Shown here: positions 8,549-16,023 of the stretch, in pieces
How positions within the stretch are numbered: position 1 is the stretch's first letter
Layout of the letters: the number at the start of each line of letters is the position of its first letter
Source: Candidatus Tayloriibacteriota bacterium
GTDB taxonomy: Bacteria > Patescibacteriota > Minisyncoccia > Phycocordibacterales > SIBU01
NCBI GenBank assembly: GCA_009695005.1
Contig: SIBU01000003.1
Location: 866-64,865 of the forward strand
DNA length: 64,000 nt
Direction: 5' to 3'
The notes under the pieces: generated by a model
Databases searched by the model: none
What the model saw: the letters and a program-made list of their open reading frames with translations, nothing else
Told to the model about the DNA's origin: nothing
Program-made: the position numbers and the translations under genes

Positions 8549-10009
8549 ATGGAAAAAATAATTGCGGGCATTATGCTCGTGTGTATGACGGTACTCGGAA
8601 ACGCAACGCCTCAACTCACTATTCGCAAAAACGAACAGGTTCCAAATCAGAACATTGCTTTGGGGATACCGAACCAACTATTCGGGAGCTACCTTGCGGT
8701 AGTAACGGGCGGGGCGATACTTTCGCCAAGCCAAATATTCTACATCGGAACCGAAAGTGGCGGAGGAGTTACCAACGTGTCAAATTTCGTGTTGGTCAAC
8801 AAAGAAGGTACCGTTATCGCGGGCCCGGTGGACCACAAGTATCTCTTTGAGGGACCTCCTCTCGGTGAGGTAGGAAGCATTACCTTCACCGATGTCATCG
8901 CCTTACCGGAAGGGACGAATGCACTCTTTCTCAAAGGGAATGTGGAAACATCCTTTCAGGTGAACGTACAGATGGTAACAGGAACGGCCCCTAGTTTATG
9001 GACCGTAACCGACCTAAACGGCACACCACTTCCGCAATCGGCTTCGGCTACTGGACTGATTATCGGACAAACGATGACCGTCCGTGGACCCTCCCTTACC
9101 GTCTCGTTCACTTCGGGTGAACAGACGGTGATAGCGGGGTCACAGCAAGTTTCCTTCGGCTCGTATGTCTTTGACGCAACGCAATCAAGCGAAGATATTC
9201 GCGTATCCGTTATTCCGGGAGATTACCGCTTCAACGAAGCGACTAGTGCTACGGACTTAACGAATATTCGTCTGTACGGTGACACAACATCGGTAACCAC
9301 CGGCTACAATGTGCTGAACCCAACACGGTTCGGCGCACAAACATTCACGTTGGACGGCAATGGTTTTATCGTACCGAAAGGAACCATAAAAACTATTCAA
9401 GTGCGGGTGGATGTGCGAAGCAACATCACGGGCACCTACCAGTGGCGAGTGCAGGAAAATCAGGCATGGTCATTTATTATTACCGGAATGGCAAGCGCGC
9501 AAAGCGCTGCAATAACACTTCAACCGACTGGCCCGTTCATACTACATGTTATCCAGCACGGCGAGGTCGCCATCACGAAGGTGTACACACCTTCGATAAG
9601 CGAAAAAGGAGACGGGACGGATACCTTTTTTGCGTTTTCCGTCGCAACGACAGGTGAACCGTTCCAAGGGGGTATCGTCAGCTTTAGGGTACAAGCAGAC
9701 CCATCAACCCGGTTTCAGATCGGAAACGGACTGATCCATCCGAAGCTAACAAGCGGAGGGACTTCTCTTGAATCCGTTCTGATCCCATGGCAGGTTGACG
9801 CGGCAGTAACCTCCTACCATGTATCATTCAACTTGATGCAAGCGTGGGAATTCCCTAAAAACACAGAACGCGAGTTCCGCTTCATTCTGGAATACGATAA
9901 CGGGCTTCAGACCGGTGATGAGGTGTCGATTGTCTTTGACGACGATAGAGAGAACATCTTCACCGGAGTTACATCGGGAGCGCGCGTAAAAGCAACGCTC
10001 CCGCCATGA
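8549..10009 (+). CDS. Secreted Ig-like repeat protein (486 aa), GC-richer than its surroundings
   Basis: SD-like gaaagga sits ~7 nt upstream of the ATG, and the N-terminus is signal-like. Modules are paralogous to the 1..1403, 1577..7129 and 45366..46838 products (compare VIAGPVDHK..ITFTDVIALPEGTNALFLKGNV with VVAGPVDAQ..IRFTDLITVPTGKNTYTVKGKL). The gene ends at a TGA that is in frame with the next ORF. Confidence 0.8.
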   Translation: MEKIIAGIMLVCMTVLGNATPQLTIRKNEQVPNQNIALGIPNQLFGSYLAVVTGGAILSPSQIFYIGTESGGGVTNVSNFVLVNKEGTVIAGPVDHKYLFEGPPLGEVGSITFTDVIALPEGTNALFLKGNVETSFQVNVQMVTGTAPSLWTVTDLNGTPLPQSASATGLIIGQTMTVRGPSLTVSFTSGEQTVIAGSQQVSFGSYVFDATQSSEDIRVSVIPGDYRFNEATSATDLTNIRLYGDTTSVTTGYNVLNPTRFGAQTFTLDGNGFIVPKGTIKTIQVRVDVRSNITGTYQWRVQENQAWSFIITGMASAQSAAITLQPTGPFILHVIQHGEVAITKVYTPSISEKGDGTDTFFAFSVATTGEPFQGGIVSFRVQADPSTRFQIGNGLIHPKLTSGGTSLESVLIPWQVDAAVTSYHVSFNLMQAWEFPKNTEREFRFILEYDNGLQTGDEVSIVFDDDRENIFTGVTSGARVKATLPP

Positions 10010-10045
10010 CATCTGTCCGTCATCCGGCGTGTACCACAACATCCA

Positions 10046-10435
10046 GTGGGCGATGCCAACGGAGATGGAACTATAGATGAAGTGGACCTCGGGATGTTAA
10101 AGACCTTGCTCAGCGCGCCCTTTGACTTTGGTTTGGATCCCGGTTGGATAGTGCGTCTGGATGTGTTCCCTGATGGTAAACTTGATGAGTGGGATGTAGC
10201 AGCATTGGAAGCATATCTGAAAGGGTTGTTTCTCACGCTTCCTGTCGGTGACGTAAATTACGATTGGAAACTAACCACAGTGGACATAAAACTTGCACGA
10301 GCGGGAATTCTTGGAACAAGGATCCTAAGGAATTTCCAGGTCCGCCAAGCGGATATCAACGCAAATGGTGGATTAACCACGCTTGACTTAACTCTTATGA
10401 GACGTCTCATCTTGGGTCTCGGTTACAGTCGATGA
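10046..10435 (+). CDS. Tandem double dockerin-type module (129 aa). Either a stand-alone ORF or the detached C-terminus of 8549..10009.
   Basis: First module: GDANGDGTIDEVDLGMLKTLL...DVFPDGKLDEWDVAALEAYLKG. Second module: GDVNYDWKLTTVDIKLARAGILG...ADINANGGLTTLDLTLMRRLILG. GTG start with no signal peptide. Same reading frame as 8549..10009 (10046-8549=1497). Confidence 0.6.
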   Translation: MGDANGDGTIDEVDLGMLKTLLSAPFDFGLDPGWIVRLDVFPDGKLDEWDVAALEAYLKGLFLTLPVGDVNYDWKLTTVDIKLARAGILGTRILRNFQVRQADINANGGLTTLDLTLMRRLILGLGYSR

Positions 10436-10517: not shown

Positions 10518-12656
10518 CTACTTTCTTGCCTCAATAATAGTCTGTGCCACGTTCGCTGGCACCGCTTCATAATGATCAAACTCCATTGTATATCCAGCTC
10601 GTCCTTCAGTCATCGAGCGAAGAGTTGTAATGTAACCGAACATTTCAGCAAGCGGCACTTTGGCGTTGATAACCTTGTTCATACCCCTCTCCCCTACGTC
10701 TTCAATGGCGGCGCGCTTTGAGGATAAATGTCCAGTAACATCTCCCATAAATTTTTCCGGTGTAACTACTTCCACTTTCATAATTGGTTCGAGAATAACT
10801 GGTCGCGCGCGTTTGGCGGCATCTTGAAAAGCTTGAGAGGCGGCAATTTTGTAAGCAATTTCAGACGAGTCGACATCGTGGTAAGAACCGTAAGTAAGTT
10901 CGCAAGAAATATTGGTCAACTTGTAACCAGCGACAATTCCCCTCTCCATTCCCTCTCGAACACCCTTTTCAACGGCAGGAATAAACTCATTTGGAATCAC
11001 ACCTCCCTTGATTGAGTTTACAAATTCGAAATCATCATAACGGCTGACATTTTTCGGGATTTTTTCAGGAGCTGGCTCAAGCGGTTTGATATTTAACTTA
11101 ACGTGGCCGTACTGACCCTTACCTCCGGACTGCTTGATGTATTTGTGTTCAGCCTCAGCTGCACCTTGAATGGTTTCCTTGTAGGCCACTTGAGGTTTTC
11201 CGACGTTCGCTTCCACAGAAAACTCTCGCTTCATGCGGTCCACCATGATTTCAAGTTGAAGTTCTCCCATACCCTTGATAACGGTCTCATTGGTTTCAGC
11301 GTCAGACCAAACTTTAAACGTAGGGTCTTCATCAGTAAGTCGTTTCAAAGCAAAACCCATTTTCTCCTGGTCAGCCTTGGTCTTCGGCTCAATGCGCATG
11401 GAGATAACCGGCTCGGCAAATTTAATCGGGTCCAAAACAATCGGTTTGTCTTCATCACATAGTGTGTGTGAAGTACGGGCATCTTTCAAACCAACAGCGG
11501 CAGCAATTTCTCCCGCATACACTTTCTTCACTTCTTCACGTTCATTGGCCTGAAGACGAACAATACGGCCCAATCGTTCTTTCTTACCCGTCGTTGAGTT
11601 GTAAATGTAACTGCCAGATTCAACGGTTCCGGAATAAACGCGGAAGAAGTTCAATTGGCCTACGAAAGGGTCAGCTTGGAGCTTAAACACGAGCGCTGAA
11701 AACGGCTCGCTATCCAAAGGCTTACGTTCTATCACTTCATTATTGTTTGGATTGACTCCTTTAACCGCGACAATATCCGAGGGAGAAGGAAGGTATTCCA
11801 CAACGGCATCGAGCACGAGCTGAACACCCTTATTTTTCAAAGCAGAACCAGTGAATACAGGGAAAATTTTGTTATCGATAACTGCCTTTCGGAGAGTCCC
11901 TTTCAACACATCAATTGCAATCTCCTTGCCTTCAAGATACTGAGTCATCAAAGAATCCTCGTGTTCGACAATTCGTTCTACGAGTTCGGCGCGATATTTC
12001 TTGGCTTCCTCAAGGTAGTCAGCGGGAATTTCCCCTTCAATAACATTGATACCCTTCTCACCATCAAAGTGATAAGCTTTCATTTTCAAAAGGTCAATGA
12101 CACCCTCATGATGCTCTTCAAGTCCGATAGGGATCTGCATACGAACGGCATTTTTTGAAAGACGCTCAAGGATTGATTTATAAGAAAATTCGAAAGATGC
12201 GCCCATGCGGTCCAACTTATTGATGAAACAAATGCGAGGCACCTTACCCTCTTCTGCATAACGCCAGTTCGTCTCACTCTGAGGCTCGACGCCAGCAACT
12301 CCGTCAAAGACGACGACAGCACCATCGAGTACACGAAGGGAACGCTTCACCTCTACGGTAAAGTCGATGTGTCCTGGGGTATCGATAATATTAAAACGGT
12401 GCTTGAAAGAATTATCTCCCTTCGGCATATAGGTCGGATTCCAAAAACAAGTAATAGCGGCAGCGGTGATAGTAATACCCCGCTCCCTCTCCTGCTCCAT
12501 CCAGTCAGTAGTAGTCTCACCTTCGTGGACTTCACCAATTTTGTGAATCATTCCGGTATAAAACAAAATACGCTCGGAAGTGGTGGTCTTTCCTGCGTCG
12601 ATATGCGCTATAATCCCGAAATTCCTAACTTTATCTAATGGATAATCTCTGTTCAT
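10518..12656 (-). CDS. fusA: Translation elongation factor G
   Basis: 712 aa. G-domain motifs AHIDAGKTT, DTPGHIDF and NKLD are present, with EF-G domains II-V throughout. Confidence 0.97.
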   Translation of the reverse strand: MNRDYPLDKVRNFGIIAHIDAGKTTTSERILFYTGMIHKIGEVHEGETTTDWMEQERERGITITAAAITCFWNPTYMPKGDNSFKHRFNIIDTPGHIDFTVEVKRSLRVLDGAVVVFDGVAGVEPQSETNWRYAEEGKVPRICFINKLDRMGASFEFSYKSILERLSKNAVRMQIPIGLEEHHEGVIDLLKMKAYHFDGEKGINVIEGEIPADYLEEAKKYRAELVERIVEHEDSLMTQYLEGKEIAIDVLKGTLRKAVIDNKIFPVFTGSALKNKGVQLVLDAVVEYLPSPSDIVAVKGVNPNNNEVIERKPLDSEPFSALVFKLQADPFVGQLNFFRVYSGTVESGSYIYNSTTGKKERLGRIVRLQANEREEVKKVYAGEIAAAVGLKDARTSHTLCDEDKPIVLDPIKFAEPVISMRIEPKTKADQEKMGFALKRLTDEDPTFKVWSDAETNETVIKGMGELQLEIMVDRMKREFSVEANVGKPQVAYKETIQGAAEAEHKYIKQSGGKGQYGHVKLNIKPLEPAPEKIPKNVSRYDDFEFVNSIKGGVIPNEFIPAVEKGVREGMERGIVAGYKLTNISCELTYGSYHDVDSSEIAYKIAASQAFQDAAKRARPVILEPIMKVEVVTPEKFMGDVTGHLSSKRAAIEDVGERGMNKVINAKVPLAEMFGYITTLRSMTEGRAGYTMEFDHYEAVPANVAQTIIEARK

Positions 12657-12660
12657 ATAT

Positions 12661-12801
12661 GTTTCGTAATATAAAATTAATTAAGCGCACATTGGGCGAA
12701 AGGGGTCGGGAAAACTGTAGTTTTCCCGTCGAGGAGAGCAGTGAGTCTGCGAGCGTTGAGAACCGTGGGTTCTCAAAGAGCCGTACTCGGCGACGATGGG
12801 T
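12661..12801 (-). other. GC-rich, hairpin-rich ~140-nt spacer between the two copies of the fusA start
   Basis: Hairpins gggaaaac/gttttccc (12708..12727) and ttgagaacc/ggttctcaa (12756..12776). Composition is clearly GC-richer than the flanks. No RNA family recognised. Confidence 0.4.
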
Positions 12802-12855
12802 GCTATAATCCCGAAATTCCTAACTTTATCTAATGGATAATCACGGTTCATATAT
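12802..12855 (-). repeat. Direct duplicate of the fusA 5' end (start codon plus 17 codons)
   Basis: The 54 nt match 12607..12660 with 2 mismatches. The 17 encoded residues MNRDYPLDKVRNFGIIA are identical; the codon changes AGA->CGT and GCG->GCA are both synonymous. The copy opens a 56-codon ORF ending TAA that is in frame with fusA. Confidence 0.85.
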
Positions 12856-12950
12856 AAAACAGATTTAAGATTAATGATTTAAGTAAAAAGAAAAGGCGCC
12901 GATTAGCGTGCCAATACATTAACGTATATTGAGGAAAAAAGCAAAATTCT

Positions 12951-13196
12951 CTAGGCCTTCTGCAATCCAACCTTGGTGCTTATGACTCGCACCTTGTCCT
13001 CAAGATTTTCAATCCTTCTATCGTGAGTATTTACTCTGTATTCGATTCTATCCACCGTTTCTTTTACTTCTTTAATCTCTTCATGAACATTGGCAAATCC
13101 TTTAACCATTTTAGACTCCAAATCTGAAAAACCTCGCTGGGTAATAACAGCCAGTTCCTCAATTTTTTCATCAATTGTTTTTACCTTCTTCGCCAT
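12951..13196 (-). CDS. Small coiled-coil protein (81 aa from MAKKVKT)
   Basis: Heptad-like charged sequence DEKIEELAV...VKETVDRIEYRVNTHDRRIENLEDKV. The ORF-track ORF extends to 13295, but the upstream part looks non-coding. The start is uncertain. Confidence 0.45.
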   Translation of the reverse strand: MAKKVKTIDEKIEELAVITQRGFSDLESKMVKGFANVHEEIKEVKETVDRIEYRVNTHDRRIENLEDKVRVISTKVGLQKA

Positions 13197-13307
13197 TTGT
13201 GAAATTGTACCACGAGCAACATACCTGGACAAAACGGAAAAAGAAAAAGGACCCCGTGAAGGAATCCTTGTGTGGAGTGTTATTGGTAGACTCAACCTCG
13301 CTAGCCC

Positions 13308-14039
13308 TTACTTACGGAAACCAGCAACCCAGCAGTCGCCACGCCCAGGAGTGCCTATGGGCCTCATGACGTATACGCGACGTTTTTCGTCATAACGACG
13401 AAACGAAATGAAACACAATTCTCCATCAGTGCCTTCCCAACAAGTGACGTTGGAAAGGTCATCAGCAAAGGTGGAATCGTCTGCATTTACAGCAATGAGA
13501 GAATACGGGTCGGCGGGTTTAAGTCCTTTCGAATCGTAACATTTCTTGATGTTATCAGAACCTTTGTGTTTAGAAAGGCCGAACCTAAAGAACACAACTT
13601 CAACCTCGTCACCCTCGCCTCTAGGCATGGTCTCAAGCATACTTTTGTCATGGATGTATGGCACATGAACAGTAGTGTCCAGAGCTTCTTGAGGCGTAAG
13701 GCCGCGGTTAACCCTGACTCGACGGGTAATAACAGAACTCTTTGCTTCAACCCGCCGGCGCAACAACGCAAACTGTTCAACCGCGAACTCCGACCGATCC
13801 AGCGCCAGTTGCATAGCTTCAATGTTAAATCCTCCGGAGTGCTTCTCCAACAGATCACGATAATTTGTAACAGCCTTATTGATCAAATCGGTAATAGTAA
13901 CCGGAATAAGGTGATCCTTGTTCCGCAATGCATCAAGAAGTTCTTGACAAGCAATCTCATGCCCGTCGCTCCTGAGTTCCGTGAGCAAATTTCCCATCTT
14001 TTCACGGAGAATTTTGAACTGTTCTTCCTTTTGTTCCAT
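13308..14039 (-). CDS. Hypothetical protein (243 aa), GC-richer orphan
   Basis: ORF-track ORF with a good SD (gaaggatcggtATG). No family recognised. Confidence 0.65.
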   Translation of the reverse strand: MEQKEEQFKILREKMGNLLTELRSDGHEIACQELLDALRNKDHLIPVTITDLINKAVTNYRDLLEKHSGGFNIEAMQLALDRSEFAVEQFALLRRRVEAKSSVITRRVRVNRGLTPQEALDTTVHVPYIHDKSMLETMPRGEGDEVEVVFFRFGLSKHKGSDNIKKCYDSKGLKPADPYSLIAVNADDSTFADDLSNVTCWEGTDGELCFISFRRYDEKRRVYVMRPIGTPGRGDCWVAGFRK

Positions 14040-14283
14040 ACCGATCCTTCATATTAAACTTTAGAGGCAATGTCCCCTGGTATACGCAAAGAATAGCCAT
14101 CTCCGCCTGGAGAACAGACCAGGATTTCAAAGTTCAGCCAGCACAAAGCAAGCGAAAATCCTTACTTATAATGCACTAGAAAGTAAATATGTCAATAGAT
14201 TGTATTCTAATCGGAAAAAAACGGGCTGTCCCGCTTTTTTACTTTTCACTTTACACTTTCAACTTTTAACTACCGAACTACCC

Positions 14284-14351
14284 AGCAAAATGTCTCCCCT
14301 CTCTGTTTGGAAAATGTTTATTCAGTTCGGGACGCTACATTTTGCGACTGG
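14284..14351. repeat. 68-nt repeat, copy 1
   Basis: 62/68 identical by hand alignment to 15459..15526. Contains the 9-nt inverted repeat gcaaaatgt...acattttgc. Confidence 0.8.
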
Positions 14352-14387
14352 GGTTAACAAAGCCTCACCTTACTAAACTTGAAATAT

Positions 14388-14431
14388 AAAAAATAAAACA
14401 GAAACCGCACTAGAGAAAATCCCTAGTGCGG
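14388..14431 (-). terminator. Rho-independent terminator (minus strand)
   Basis: 9-bp stem ccgcactag / ctagtgcgg with a 9-nt loop. On the minus strand it is followed by tttctgttttatttttt. Confidence 0.6.
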
Positions 14432-14741
14432 TGTTAGCGAATTATTTTTAAATTTCTAAGTAAGAGCCTTCGCTTTGATCCCCTTACAGAGCCTGGATTT
14501 TTCACCCACTATTCTACCAGTCCGACGGTAACTTAATATTTACCCGCTTTGGCTTTTGATGGGTTATTCTATCAGGAATAAAAAGTACTATATCCAAAAA
14601 TAGATTAACACAGTTAGCAAAAAAAGCAAGGCCTACCCTCCATTTTGGAATTATCAAAAAAACCAGCTGACTTTTTTTATTTTGTAAAACGTTGAAAAAT
14701 TTTAGCAAGGTTAAGCCTTGCTACGCCCCAACCCTTCTTCC

Positions 14742-15125
14742 CTACTGAATCAAAACAGGTTTGCTTTTTCTTACCAAAATCAACAAAATAATCGGACGAA
14801 TAACTATCTGAACAATCACCTTAAGGGCCGCGAGATTATAATTAAAATAGGCGAACTGGAAGTATCCTGGGAAAAAGGCGGTCACAGCGACTATGGTGTA
14901 AATAAGTCTAGCGACCTCAAACCCCGTAACCAAATTATAAGCTATCTTTTTTCGCTTGAATAAAAAATACACAATCGGTACATAAAATACGACTTGTATG
15001 ATACTTGGTACACTTGAATATGTACTAATTCTGAAACATGCATTTAAAAACGATGAAATTAGAAAAAGGCAGTAGAGAATCTGCAAAATTATGAGACTGA
15101 CGGACATTGAGGAAGAAGTTTTCAT
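14742..15125 (-). CDS. Small polytopic membrane protein (~127 aa from MKTSSS)
   Basis: ORF-track ORF 14742..15161, with four hydrophobic helices. The internal ATG at 15125 avoids overlap with the upstream gene. Confidence 0.5.
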   Translation of the reverse strand: MKTSSSMSVSLIILQILYCLFLISSFLNACFRISTYSSVPSIIQVVFYVPIVYFLFKRKKIAYNLVTGFEVARLIYTIVAVTAFFPGYFQFAYFNYNLAALKVIVQIVIRPIILLILVRKSKPVLIQ

Positions 15126-15132
15126 GAAAACT

Positions 15133-15417
15133 TTATCGACTTTTACTCCAAACCACCGCAAGAAATATCAAGGCTGTCAAAACATAACCGCCCCTCATCT
15201 CCCAGAATGAAGGTTCGGGTATTACACCTGACATTAAATTAATTGCTTCCTCTCGACTAATTTTTTTATCCTCAGATCGTTTATCTCCTAAAACGTGCCA
15301 ACTTAAATGATGAGCTATGGGACAGAAAAAAAAATGAGAATACCGCCAGACAAGAACCAAGACCCTTCCGTCTGAAAGAGTCCATTGCCTAGTTTTTGTA
15401 CCAGAGCCAAATATCAT
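15133..15417 (-). CDS. Hypothetical small protein (94 aa) with a C-terminal TM helix
   Basis: ORF-track ORF. The N-terminus reads IFGSGTKT...YSHFFFCPI and the C-terminus is hydrophobic (GYVLTALIFLAVVW). Confidence 0.45.
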   Translation of the reverse strand: MIFGSGTKTRQWTLSDGRVLVLVWRYSHFFFCPIAHHLSWHVLGDKRSEDKKISREEAINLMSGVIPEPSFWEMRGGYVLTALIFLAVVWSKSR

Positions 15418-15552: not shown

Positions 15553-16023
15553 TTACCAAGCAAAATGTGCGAATGCTTTGTTGGCTTCCGCCATCTTGTG
15601 AGTATTTTCGCGCTTGCGTACCGCTTCACCTTCGTTCTTTGAGGCAGCGATCAGTTCATCTGCGAGCTTAATATGCATAGGTTTACCCTTCTTACTTCGA
15701 GCGGCTTCGATTATCCAGCGCATCGAAAGAGCGAGACGTCGTTCAGGTCGAACTTCCACAGGCACTTGGTAGTTGGCACCTCCCACTCGGCGAGAGCGAA
15801 CTTCCATAACCGGTCCGGTATTTTTCAAAGCAGTATCAAAAACTTCCATTGGGTTTTCTGTCTTGGTCTTTTCTTTTATTTCATCAAAAGCTCCGTAAAC
15901 AACTGTTCGAGCAACATTCTTCTTACCCGCCATCATCACATAGTTAATAAGCTTCCCGACTTTTTCGGAACTGTATTTTGAATCTGGTTTAACGATATTT
16001 GTCTTTTTATGTTTTCTTCTCAT
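15553..16023 (-). CDS. rpsG: 30S ribosomal protein S7
   Basis: 156 aa. S7-typical motifs: KLINYVMMAGKK, EVRSRRVGGANYQVPVEV and a C-terminal EANKAFAHFAW. Confidence 0.97.
   Translation of the reverse strand: MRRKHKKTNIVKPDSKYSSEKVGKLINYVMMAGKKNVARTVVYGAFDEIKEKTKTENPMEVFDTALKNTGPVMEVRSRRVGGANYQVPVEVRPERRLALSMRWIIEAARSKKGKPMHIKLADELIAASKNEGEAVRKRENTHKMAEANKAFAHFAW

Follow-up and report, generated by a model that had tools for sequence, protein, structure and literature searches.

Integrative elements, such as prophages, islands and ICEs, use the end of a tRNA or another gene as their attachment site (attB) and bring a replacement for this end in attP, while CIMEs are recombinase-less derivatives of such elements. 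An integrase lineage normally has one attB. Here, we analysed a window, i.e., one whole stretch of 64,000 nucleotides, from a Candidatus Tayloriibacteriota bacterium, in which the start of fusA is found twice with a short segment in between. The segment is a member of a sequence family and encodes nothing: it has no protein-coding capacity of its own, and the only frame through it is an upstream ORF (uORF) that reads through from the first of the two starts. We consider it likely that the segment (12661–12800) is a protein-less mobile cassette, inserted near the beginning of fusA where the gene encodes the GTPase P-loop, and belonging to a family that occupies gene ends in Patescibacteria.

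The duplicated start of fusA

The direct repeat consists of 12607–12660 and 12802–12855, i.e., 54 nt with 2 mismatches at a spacing of 195 nt, and grows to 66 nt at 91% under looser identity. This duplication was noticed in an earlier sequence-only reading, and all the features stated there are confirmed, including that the differences are synonymous. Both copies translate to MNRDYPLDKVRNFGIIA. The two mismatches are in the Arg codon 3, which is CGT in the upstream copy and AGA in the gene copy, and a third difference is located at the adjoining base, in Ala17 (GCA vs GCG). The flanking repeat has an alignment score of 51, compared with 15 for the 99th percentile of the null, and a repeat of this length with 2 mismatches within 800 nt cannot be chance. 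The parts of the locus are as follows.

12801 to 12855, minus strand: T_up, the displaced original fusA start (ATAT, ATG and codons 1–17), contiguous with the native leader
12782 to 12800, minus strand: junction piece of the cassette, degenerate fusA codons 18–24
12697 to 12781, minus strand: conserved core with two covarying hairpins (12756–12776 and 12707–12728), from the covariance model R1 and covariation
12680 to 12693, minus strand: T', imperfectly complementary to fusA codons 15–19 (12601–12614) and paired with them in the MFE and centroid folds
12661 to 12679, minus strand: AT-rich spacer of the cassette, near-identical in the cassette of another species
12606 to 12660, minus strand: T_down, the working fusA start (ATAT, ATG and codons 1–17), with edges as in the related copy L101 and interior as in T_up
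12681 to 12851, minus strand: 56-codon uORF that opens at the displaced start and runs through the junction piece, the core and T'
10518 to 12656, minus strand: fusA, intact, encoding EF-G of 712 aa

The two copies of the start are not placed alike. T_up is preceded by a leader motif that relatives conserve upstream of fusA, and its codon 3, CGT, is the same in the nearest congeners. The sequence directly upstream of the working start is instead the AT-rich spacer, which is unlike the native leader. The edges of T_down (AGA in codon 3 and GCG in codon 17) equal the cassette-side copy, T_down, of L101, and its interior equals T_up. In total, T_up and T_down are identical at 48 of 51 positions, and the lineage-specific Asp8 is present in both. 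Within the cassette, the junction piece reads P-I-V-A-E-Y where fusA has H-I-D-A-G-K.

The insert between the copies, 144 nt, is GC-rich, with a G+C content of 57% vs 29–40% in the surroundings. It folds at -38.8 kcal/mol (z = -4.5 vs shuffled sequence), and the two strong hairpins proposed for it are indeed present, the one at 12707–12728 being a perfect stem of 10 bp. No tRNA or tmRNA was detected in a scan of the window. The four ORFs between rpsG and fusA show no homology to the flanks of other copies of the cassette, and their Pfam matches are limited to weak coiled-coil ones.

The upstream ATG at 12851 opens the uORF, and its stop codon, TAA, is located 24 nt (8 codons) before the real fusA ATG and in frame with it, as had been described. 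The same arrangement is seen in the family: in 15 of the 16 copies at protein-coding targets a uORF reads through the core and stops between -11 and +35 nt from the real ATG, with an ATGA overlap in 4 of these 15. The probability that every such uORF uses a stop-free frame by chance is about 0.02. Translation of fusA is probably maintained through this uORF, which may also be relevant to translational coupling.

A conserved core at many gene ends

The core (12691–12781) matches the covariance model R1 with 99 bits (E 2e-23), and nhmmer matches it with an E-value of 1e-23. In the family, the core is about 90 nt long and forms two hairpins, both of which show covariation among 78 distinct copies. 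For instance, GC and AU occur at pair 59:72 in 40 and 36 copies, respectively, and at pair 9:24 in 44 and 23. A search against Rfam over 12400–13100, with E-values up to 10, gave no family on the cassette, self-splicing introns included. A chance partial match to an S15 leader (12.3 bits) was seen over the cassette.

R1 finds the core in 63 of 151 genomes sampled from the order to which the source genome belongs, and the highest copy number in one genome is 16. In the source genome the cassette is single-copy, and the search for further copies there, which the earlier reading had proposed, returned none. That reading would have given up the connection with fusA if the segment were a multi-copy repeat unlinked to the gene. 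It is multi-copy across relatives; however, the pieces of fusA that this element contains link it specifically to the gene.

The targets are the 3' ends of tRNAs and the 5' ends of fusA, lepA and a bipA-like gene, as well as the 5' ends of glycosyltransferase, MurD-like and metal-binding genes. A single conserved core is used at tmRNA, at 11 or more tRNA species and in six or more protein families. Copies are flanked by a displaced gene end on one side and a working gene end on the other, and in 33 of 79 copies the direct repeat on the two sides scores above the 99th percentile of a null built from mismatched loci. The duplications are 13–66 nt long. The copies targeted to fusA, lepA and the bipA-like gene have a common join, GCA CCC RTC GTC GC, i.e., IIA followed by P(I/V)VA. 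At the MurD-like targets both gene starts have an ATG of their own, and the first codons differ between them. At the tRNA targets, terminators are part of what is duplicated; their stems have changed in a compensatory manner, and the tRNA end beside them is 100% identical. The phylogeny of the core was compared with the type of target, and the tree is poorly resolved.

A tail complementary to the downstream target is found in 42 of 78 copies. This T' follows directly after the conserved scaffold, spans the join and is 11–22 nt long. It is perfect against the local target in three sister copies, L100 (15/15), L096 (13/13) and L080 (11/11), while that of the fusA copy in the window pairs at 12 of 14 positions with one bulge and is not above the null in the family-wide statistic. 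In one genome, near-identical cores at tRNA-Ile and tRNA-Arg have T and T' that are each matched locally.

A perfect T' beside the scaffold, the use of the same core at many unrelated targets and the strong conservation of this core across families could all be explained by guide-directed homing, in which the core and T', as RNA or folded single-stranded DNA, would steer a host recombinase or nuclease to the target and the cassette would be copied into empty sites. We regard this as rather unlikely. The filled allele again contains the target of T', which would expose filled sites to cutting by a nuclease as well, and the copy in the window and L101 have the same imperfect T' despite their differing targets. 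Further, the counts of G-U and A-C in the stems show no strand bias, and no partner protein was found; among the 79 loci, no ORF for an IS110- or OMEGA-type partner enzyme adjoins a copy. The related proposal, that the core and T' form a reprogrammable guide with which a host enzyme inserts the gene-less cassette at any conserved gene end that matches, rebuilding the end, is likewise doubtful, and a little more so. If true, it would define a class of mobile elements whose targeting is nucleic-acid-guided and which have no gene.

Outside the sampled genomes, blastn against phage and plasmid collections, a scan of IMG/VR with two core patterns and a search of species-representative genomes with the junction pattern gave no match. 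No published description of the cassette family was found in a full-text literature search. The family is widespread in the ultra-small CPR/Patescibacteria and apparently undescribed, at least as far as we could find.

Insertion in one lineage and transfer between species

In six congeners, a single fusA start is located behind the same leader, and none of the six has the core at fusA. Likewise, no core was found within 600 nt upstream of fusA in 80 species representatives. Judged from these genomes, the insertion is specific to this lineage. A fusA-sited core is also found in metagenome contigs of two other organisms, and the same fusA architecture exists in four contigs, which come from three metagenome record sets with separate names. 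The contig of P0003 was located by a metagenome pattern scan.

These observations bear on two other explanations. The first is that the segment is a cis-regulatory fusA leader, with a uORF that mimics EF-G, as had been raised before, or an attenuator that senses translation. The uORF would suit such a role, as it is in frame, ends shortly before the start and crosses strong hairpins. However, the distribution largely refutes it, as the element is at fusA in none of the 6 congeners or 80 other species, the same core is found at tRNAs and unrelated genes, and the native upstream leader is conserved and separate. The upstream ORF is better described as the displaced original start, and a regulatory leader is very improbable. 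The second, also raised before, is an artefact in which the assembly joined the alleles of two strains, a concern for a 24-contig metagenome-type assembly in which the start copies differ at three bases. The evidence in favour of the assembly at this locus is indirect: the 144 nt between the copies are not a fusA allele, the same layout recurs at fusA in the three record sets, and it is seen at 33 of the 79 family copies. We give a join of this kind hardly any credence.

The cassette and that of L101, from one of the two other organisms, are identical at 138 of 145 positions (95%). The sequences around them are far less alike: identity is 57% over the 150 nt upstream, 40 of 51 positions in each T copy and 68% over the following 300 nt of fusA, and across fusA it is 49% at third codon positions and 44% at four-fold sites. 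Since the cassette is 95% identical to that of L101 while the flanking fusA differs at half of the third positions, the fusA-type cassette has, on this comparison, moved horizontally between species. Sliding windows gave no signal of a foreign 5' segment in the body of fusA.

Within L100 and L101, the two T copies are only 38/51 and 36/51 identical, and all differences are synonymous. This divergence is comparable to that between orthologues of different species. Together with the changed terminators at tRNA targets and the differing starts at MurD-like targets, it favours a replacement gene end that came from another lineage.

Mode of entry and comparison with known systems

The earlier proposal, in which an insertion or recombination event left the duplication as its footprint, is correct in essence: the segment is a cassette of a large mobile family whose architecture includes the duplication. 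The question is then by which route it entered. The ORFs that recur around the 79 copies are target genes and translations of the core only, without a transposase or a parent IS. A reverse transcriptase was rejected as the driver, as RVT_1, the only such model searched, was not found in three of the five genomes with high copy numbers, G112 (16 copies), G102 (14) and G145 (9). In the source genome, 89% complete, neither RVT_1 nor Phage_integrase was found. One Xer-like gene is present in 146 of the 151 genomes irrespective of whether they contain the element. A tyrosine recombinase was therefore also rejected, being near-universal, usually one per genome and uncorrelated with the element. In 5 genomes a tyrosine recombinase gene is located 1–6 kb from the element, which is not systematic.

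A transposon-like or retro-element could insert a unit of about 140 nt by a trans-acting transposase or reverse transcriptase at staggered nicks about 55 nt apart; both fusA starts would then result from fill-in of the local sequence, as a long target-site duplication. The near-identity of the two start copies in the window, with Asp8 in common, is what such an insertion would leave, and both the variable length of the duplications and the locally matched flanks at different tRNAs of one genome agree with it. However, the T copies of L100 and L101 have diverged like orthologues with no amino-acid change, and the duplicated terminators differ in a compensatory manner although the adjoining, non-functional tRNA fragment is identical. 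Moreover, degenerate fusA codons 18–24 are part of the cassette, and so, apparently, are the gene's first 11 nt, no transposase ORF recurs beside the copies, and RVT_1 is missing as described above. We find this explanation unlikely.

We suggest that the mobile cassette entered when a copy of the gene start that it carried recombined with fusA on the chromosome. By this route the essential gene would never have been without a start. The crossover can be placed just upstream of codon 17, in the stretch for the conserved IIAH(I/V)D. The enzymes would act in trans, being those of host homologous recombination following the uptake of DNA or, alternatively, a factor that recognises the folded core, and T' might serve in finding or holding the target. 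Plain homologous recombination is opposed by the locally matched T and T' at different tRNAs, which need a target-copying step. A T_down that travelled with the cassette predicts about 95% likeness to L101, while the two T_downs are 78% alike, so later gene conversion between the start copies is needed; it would have homogenised the interior and kept differences at the edges only. The pattern, with donor-type bases at the outer edges of the repeat and host-type interior in both copies, fits an ends-in model. The resulting layout runs from the native promoter and leader through the displaced start and the 56-codon uORF across the cassette to the working start, and fusA could be expressed by read-through from its own promoter together with termination-reinitiation coupling via the uORF. 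We infer each step of the mechanism, as no recombinase or intermediate was identified.

If this is true, a gene-less DNA of 144 nt can settle within the first 20 codons of an essential, highly conserved gene without harm and cross species. CPR bacteria represent a large share of bacterial diversity and are hard to grow; the family would be common among them and mark their tRNA and translation-factor genes. Gene calling would be misled: short ORFs such as P0001 and P0003 would be spurious calls, and some start codons may be wrong. The portable stretches of homology could promote the exchange of essential genes, and a T' beside a conserved scaffold would point to a possible new mechanism of guided insertion.

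If our reading is right, this tiny gene-less cassette does not fit transposons, integrative islands, introns or MITEs. Like MITEs, REP/BIME, Correia and RPE sequences, it is small, non-coding, hairpin-rich, multi-copy and patchy. Unlike MITEs, it has no fixed terminal inverted repeats, the only inverted pair being derived from the target, and its duplications of 13–66 nt, with up to orthologue-level divergence, are not of a short fixed length. In contrast to these small repeats, it is limited to gene ends, the gene is restored, and no parent IS is found beside any copy. The folded conserved scaffold adjoining a short target-complementary stretch is similar to the bridge RNA of IS110 and the omega RNAs of TnpB/IscB. 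However, the cassette has no attached transposase or nuclease gene and no Rfam match, it is known here as a DNA sequence, and the gene end is duplicated. Ends-in integration (double-strand gap repair), as in yeast plasmid targeting, shares the donor-type edges and the host-type interior, but it is a general repair pathway and not an element, and it explains neither the conserved core nor the new targets. Integrative elements and CIMEs are kilobases long, while the cassettes are about 145–200 nt without an integrase or any other gene, and no integrase tracks the element. Further, the cassette core uses many target classes and not one attB, and T' adds an inverted copy of the target. What the cassettes have in common with integrative elements and CIMEs is the use of a conserved gene end as the site, the direct repeats of this end that flank the insert, the substitute end that is brought along and keeps the gene intact and, at tRNAs, an inner boundary that is located in the T-loop.

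Anatomy of the fusA locus

On the minus strand, fusA (10518-12656, 712 aa) has its start region in two copies. The sequence-only reading had described this duplication, and all its statements on the locus are borne out. Positions 12802-12855 repeat 12607-12660 (54 nt, 2 mismatches, spacing 195 nt), each copy starts four bases before an ATG and encodes MNRDYPLDKVRNFGIIA, and the copies differ in the codons of Arg3 (CGT upstream, AGA in the gene) and Ala17 (GCA versus GCG). A 56-codon frame, the uORF, begins at the upstream ATG (12851) and closes with a TAA that lies 24 nt 5' of the real ATG, in the same frame. Between the copies the DNA is G+C-rich, with two strong hairpins, and its predicted fold is far more stable than those of shuffled sequence (z = -4.5). 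At lower identity the repeat reaches 66 nt.

Segments of the locus, in fusA orientation
5' of T_up: native leader
12855-12801, minus: T_up, the displaced original start
12800-12782, minus: junction piece, P-I-V-A-E-Y in place of EF-G H-I-D-A-G-K
12781-12697, minus: core, the two-hairpin segment that defines the family (hairpins 12776-12756 and 12728-12707)
12693-12680, minus: T', complementary to gene codons 15-19 at 12/14 positions with one bulge
12679-12661, minus: AT-rich spacer
12660-12606, minus: T_down, the working start, then the remainder of fusA

From the residues it encodes, the junction piece is a degenerate copy of codons 18-24. Both predicted folds, MFE and centroid, contain the pairing of T' with its target.

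The 144-nt cassette, i.e., the insert between the two starts, showed no promoter-like or terminator-like site, and fusA would be transcribed by read-through from its native promoter. The displaced-ATG frame runs through the core in 15 of 16 protein-target copies, with all three entry frames represented, and its stop falls no more than 35 nt ahead of the A of the real ATG and no more than 11 nt past it (ATGA overlap in four). Given the stop-free frames of each core, the chance that every uORF takes one is ~0.02. Ribosomes translating the uORF would open the hairpins and T' and then pass to the real start.

The conserved fusA leader (12885-12947, minus) has a promoter-like motif (ATTTTGC…TAATCTAT-like), a small hairpin and then a T-run. 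The hairpin stem covaries across species (ACGC/GCGT versus CAGC/GCTG). Most congeners and the metagenome contig L101 have this leader 40-90 nt 5' of the native ATG, irrespective of the upstream gene. A match to AniS is weak and sub-threshold; the leader may serve as an attenuator or as a 5' stabiliser.

An interruption of the str operon at 12951-15417 separates rpsG (15553-16023) from fusA by four ORFs (94, 139, 243 and 114 aa) with only weak coiled-coil Pfam matches. The 114-aa coiled-coil ORF is also found 5' of fusA in the congener G005 (L021); in genome G002 (L025) rpsG is directly 5' of fusA. Downstream of fusA, 8549-10435 on the plus strand holds two ORFs: one of 486 aa has no Pfam match, and the other, of 129 aa, contains two dockerin type I repeats (E 6e-14). 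In several Patescibacteria (L106, L114, L122, L137, L139, L142-L146, L156, L162, L176) the fusA match is 500-1000 nt longer than the usual ~2140 nt, which suggests large insertions inside the EF-G genes, possibly inteins or introns.

Spread and targets of the core family

The cassette is single-copy in its own genome (0.79 Mb, 24 contigs). Its central ~85 nt are found in five of six same-genus genomes (E < 1e-8, at most 5 copies each), the sixth giving chance-level matches only. A home-made covariance model of the core, built from ten copies and with rough E-values, detects it in 63 of 151 sampled genomes of the order, in many families and with up to 16 copies per genome. The named relatives of the EF-G of the own genome are MAGs of Candidatus Kaiserbacteria, Adlerbacteria, Paceibacterota and "Patescibacteria group". 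That the element is a regulator specific to fusA is very unlikely, as its distribution contradicts this.

Both core hairpins covary among 78 distinct copies; one pair, for example, is G-C in 40 and A-U in 36. G-U and A-C counts in the stems are similar (10 versus 14), so these data are silent on the folding strand and on RNA versus DNA. Flanks were compared for 79 oriented core copies, using mismatched loci as the null, and in 33 of them the direct repeat between the upstream and downstream flanks exceeds the null 99th percentile. In 42 of 78 copies the first 11-22 nt past the core show complementarity to the target downstream, at the inner edge of the direct repeat (less than one copy expected at the threshold from the same kind of null).

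Targets of the core family
3' ends of at least 11 tRNA species and tmRNA, antisense
Behind the 3' end of rpsI (ribosomal protein S9), antisense: L006, L007, L039, L083, L086
5' end of a glycosyltransferase-like gene, sense: seven loci
5' ends of MurD-like genes, sense
5' ends of metal-binding (HMA-like) genes, sense
5' ends of three paralogous translational GTPases, sense: fusA (window), lepA (L080), bipA/typA-like (L096)

One join is common to the three GTPase-targeted cassettes, …I-I-A followed by P-(I/V)-V-A… (GCA CCC RTC GTC GC), and T' is complementary to its own local P-loop-coding sequence at 11/11 positions in L080, 13/13 in L096 and 15/15 in the fusA-type contig L100. The GTPase-targeted cassettes form a single sub-lineage directed at the best-conserved part of those genes.

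A high-copy core sub-family (L030, L033, L035, L038, L041, L060-L070 etc.; genomes G112, G145, G102, G100) has similar stem-plus-inner-hairpin modules on both sides, and nine of its loci lie directly 5' of a cysteine-desulfurase-like gene (MKNQKRIYLDYAATTPLD…). At L075, L098 and L037, extra T'-like pieces and terminators 5' of the displaced tRNA end suggest earlier insertions, nested or in tandem, at that tRNA.

Cassette transfer and probable origin of the second start

In each of the six congeners fusA has one start only, preceded by the same conserved leader. Among 80 further species representatives, none has the core within 600 nt 5' of fusA. Searching proteins with the uORF gave one relative (P0003), and a scan of metagenomes for the junction pattern gave four contigs in three separately named record sets. 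The contigs stem from two other organisms (L100; L101-L103), and in each of them fusA has the layout of the window locus. These contigs and the family-wide pattern make an assembly artefact at the window locus very unlikely.

Between the window and L101 the cassette is 95% identical (138/145), compared with 57% for the 150 nt upstream, 40/51 for each gene-start copy and 68% for the next 300 nt of fusA. Over the whole of fusA, amino-acid identity is 89%, with 49% at third codon positions and 44% at four-fold sites. The non-coding cassette, its AT-rich spacer included, is thus far better kept than the saturated synonymous sites of the essential gene around it, and this is best explained by a recent horizontal transfer of the fusA-type cassette between organisms.

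T_up adjoins the native leader and has CGT as in the nearest congeners. It ends in GCA, with CCC as the next codon, in all three fusA-type cassettes, which places the crossover upstream of the last base of codon 17. T_up and T_down are 38/51 identical in L100 and 36/51 in L101, compared with 36-44/51 between different species, and all differences within these two loci are synonymous. In-place drift of a non-functional duplicate would gather amino-acid changes, so one copy derives from the functional fusA of another lineage. The same signature is present at other targets: in the tRNA loci L075, L071 and L094 the duplicated unit takes in the terminator, with compensatory stem differences beside a 100% identical tRNA end, and in the MurD-like loci L085 and L056 the copies have an ATG each and differ in their first codons.

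In the window, the copies are 48/51 identical, with the lineage-specific Asp8 in both, and differ only at the two repeat edges, where T_down equals the L101 T_down (ATGAACAGAGA…, …GCG). Such near-identity would fit a staggered-cut transposition or retro-insertion; however, this reading does not fit the orthologue-like divergence of copies at other loci, nor the reverse-transcriptase search, in which RVT_1 was not found in three of five high-copy genomes or in the own genome. We suggest that the start was borne by the cassette and that its interior was later overwritten from T_up by gene conversion. Ends-in gap repair integration would be expected to leave the same edge pattern.

Movement to new targets and relation to known systems

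Genome G104 has two cores, ~95% alike and with a related element-borne terminator, at tRNA-Ile and tRNA-Arg, with matching T and T' specific to each site. A move to a new target thus needs copying of that target, a step that homologous recombination alone does not provide, and a pure recombination model would not fit this pair. The window and L101 have an identical imperfect T' despite their different targets, so that T', over short times at least, is passed on together with the cassette.

The presence of T' makes insertion by a guide-directed enzyme attractive; against it, no partner protein was found and the target is re-formed in filled sites. The cassette has no coding capacity, and no ORFs except the target genes recur beside core copies. 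Of 151 genomes of the order, 146 have a single Xer-like tyrosine recombinase, regardless of element content, and no Phage_integrase/Xer-type recombinase was found in the own genome (89% complete). The core had no match in phage, plasmid and IMG/VR collections. Movement would be driven by host recombination following DNA uptake or else by a trans-acting factor that has escaped recognition.

A literature search found no description of the cassette family. It differs from MITEs, having neither their termini nor a short fixed duplication, and from described RNA families, as a search of Rfam with the cassette gave no matching family. Closest in concept are integrative elements that bring a replacement gene end, together with those of their derivatives that lack a recombinase. 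In contrast to these, the cassette is only about 145 nt long, without any gene, and its family combines one core with many unrelated targets and an inverted target piece.
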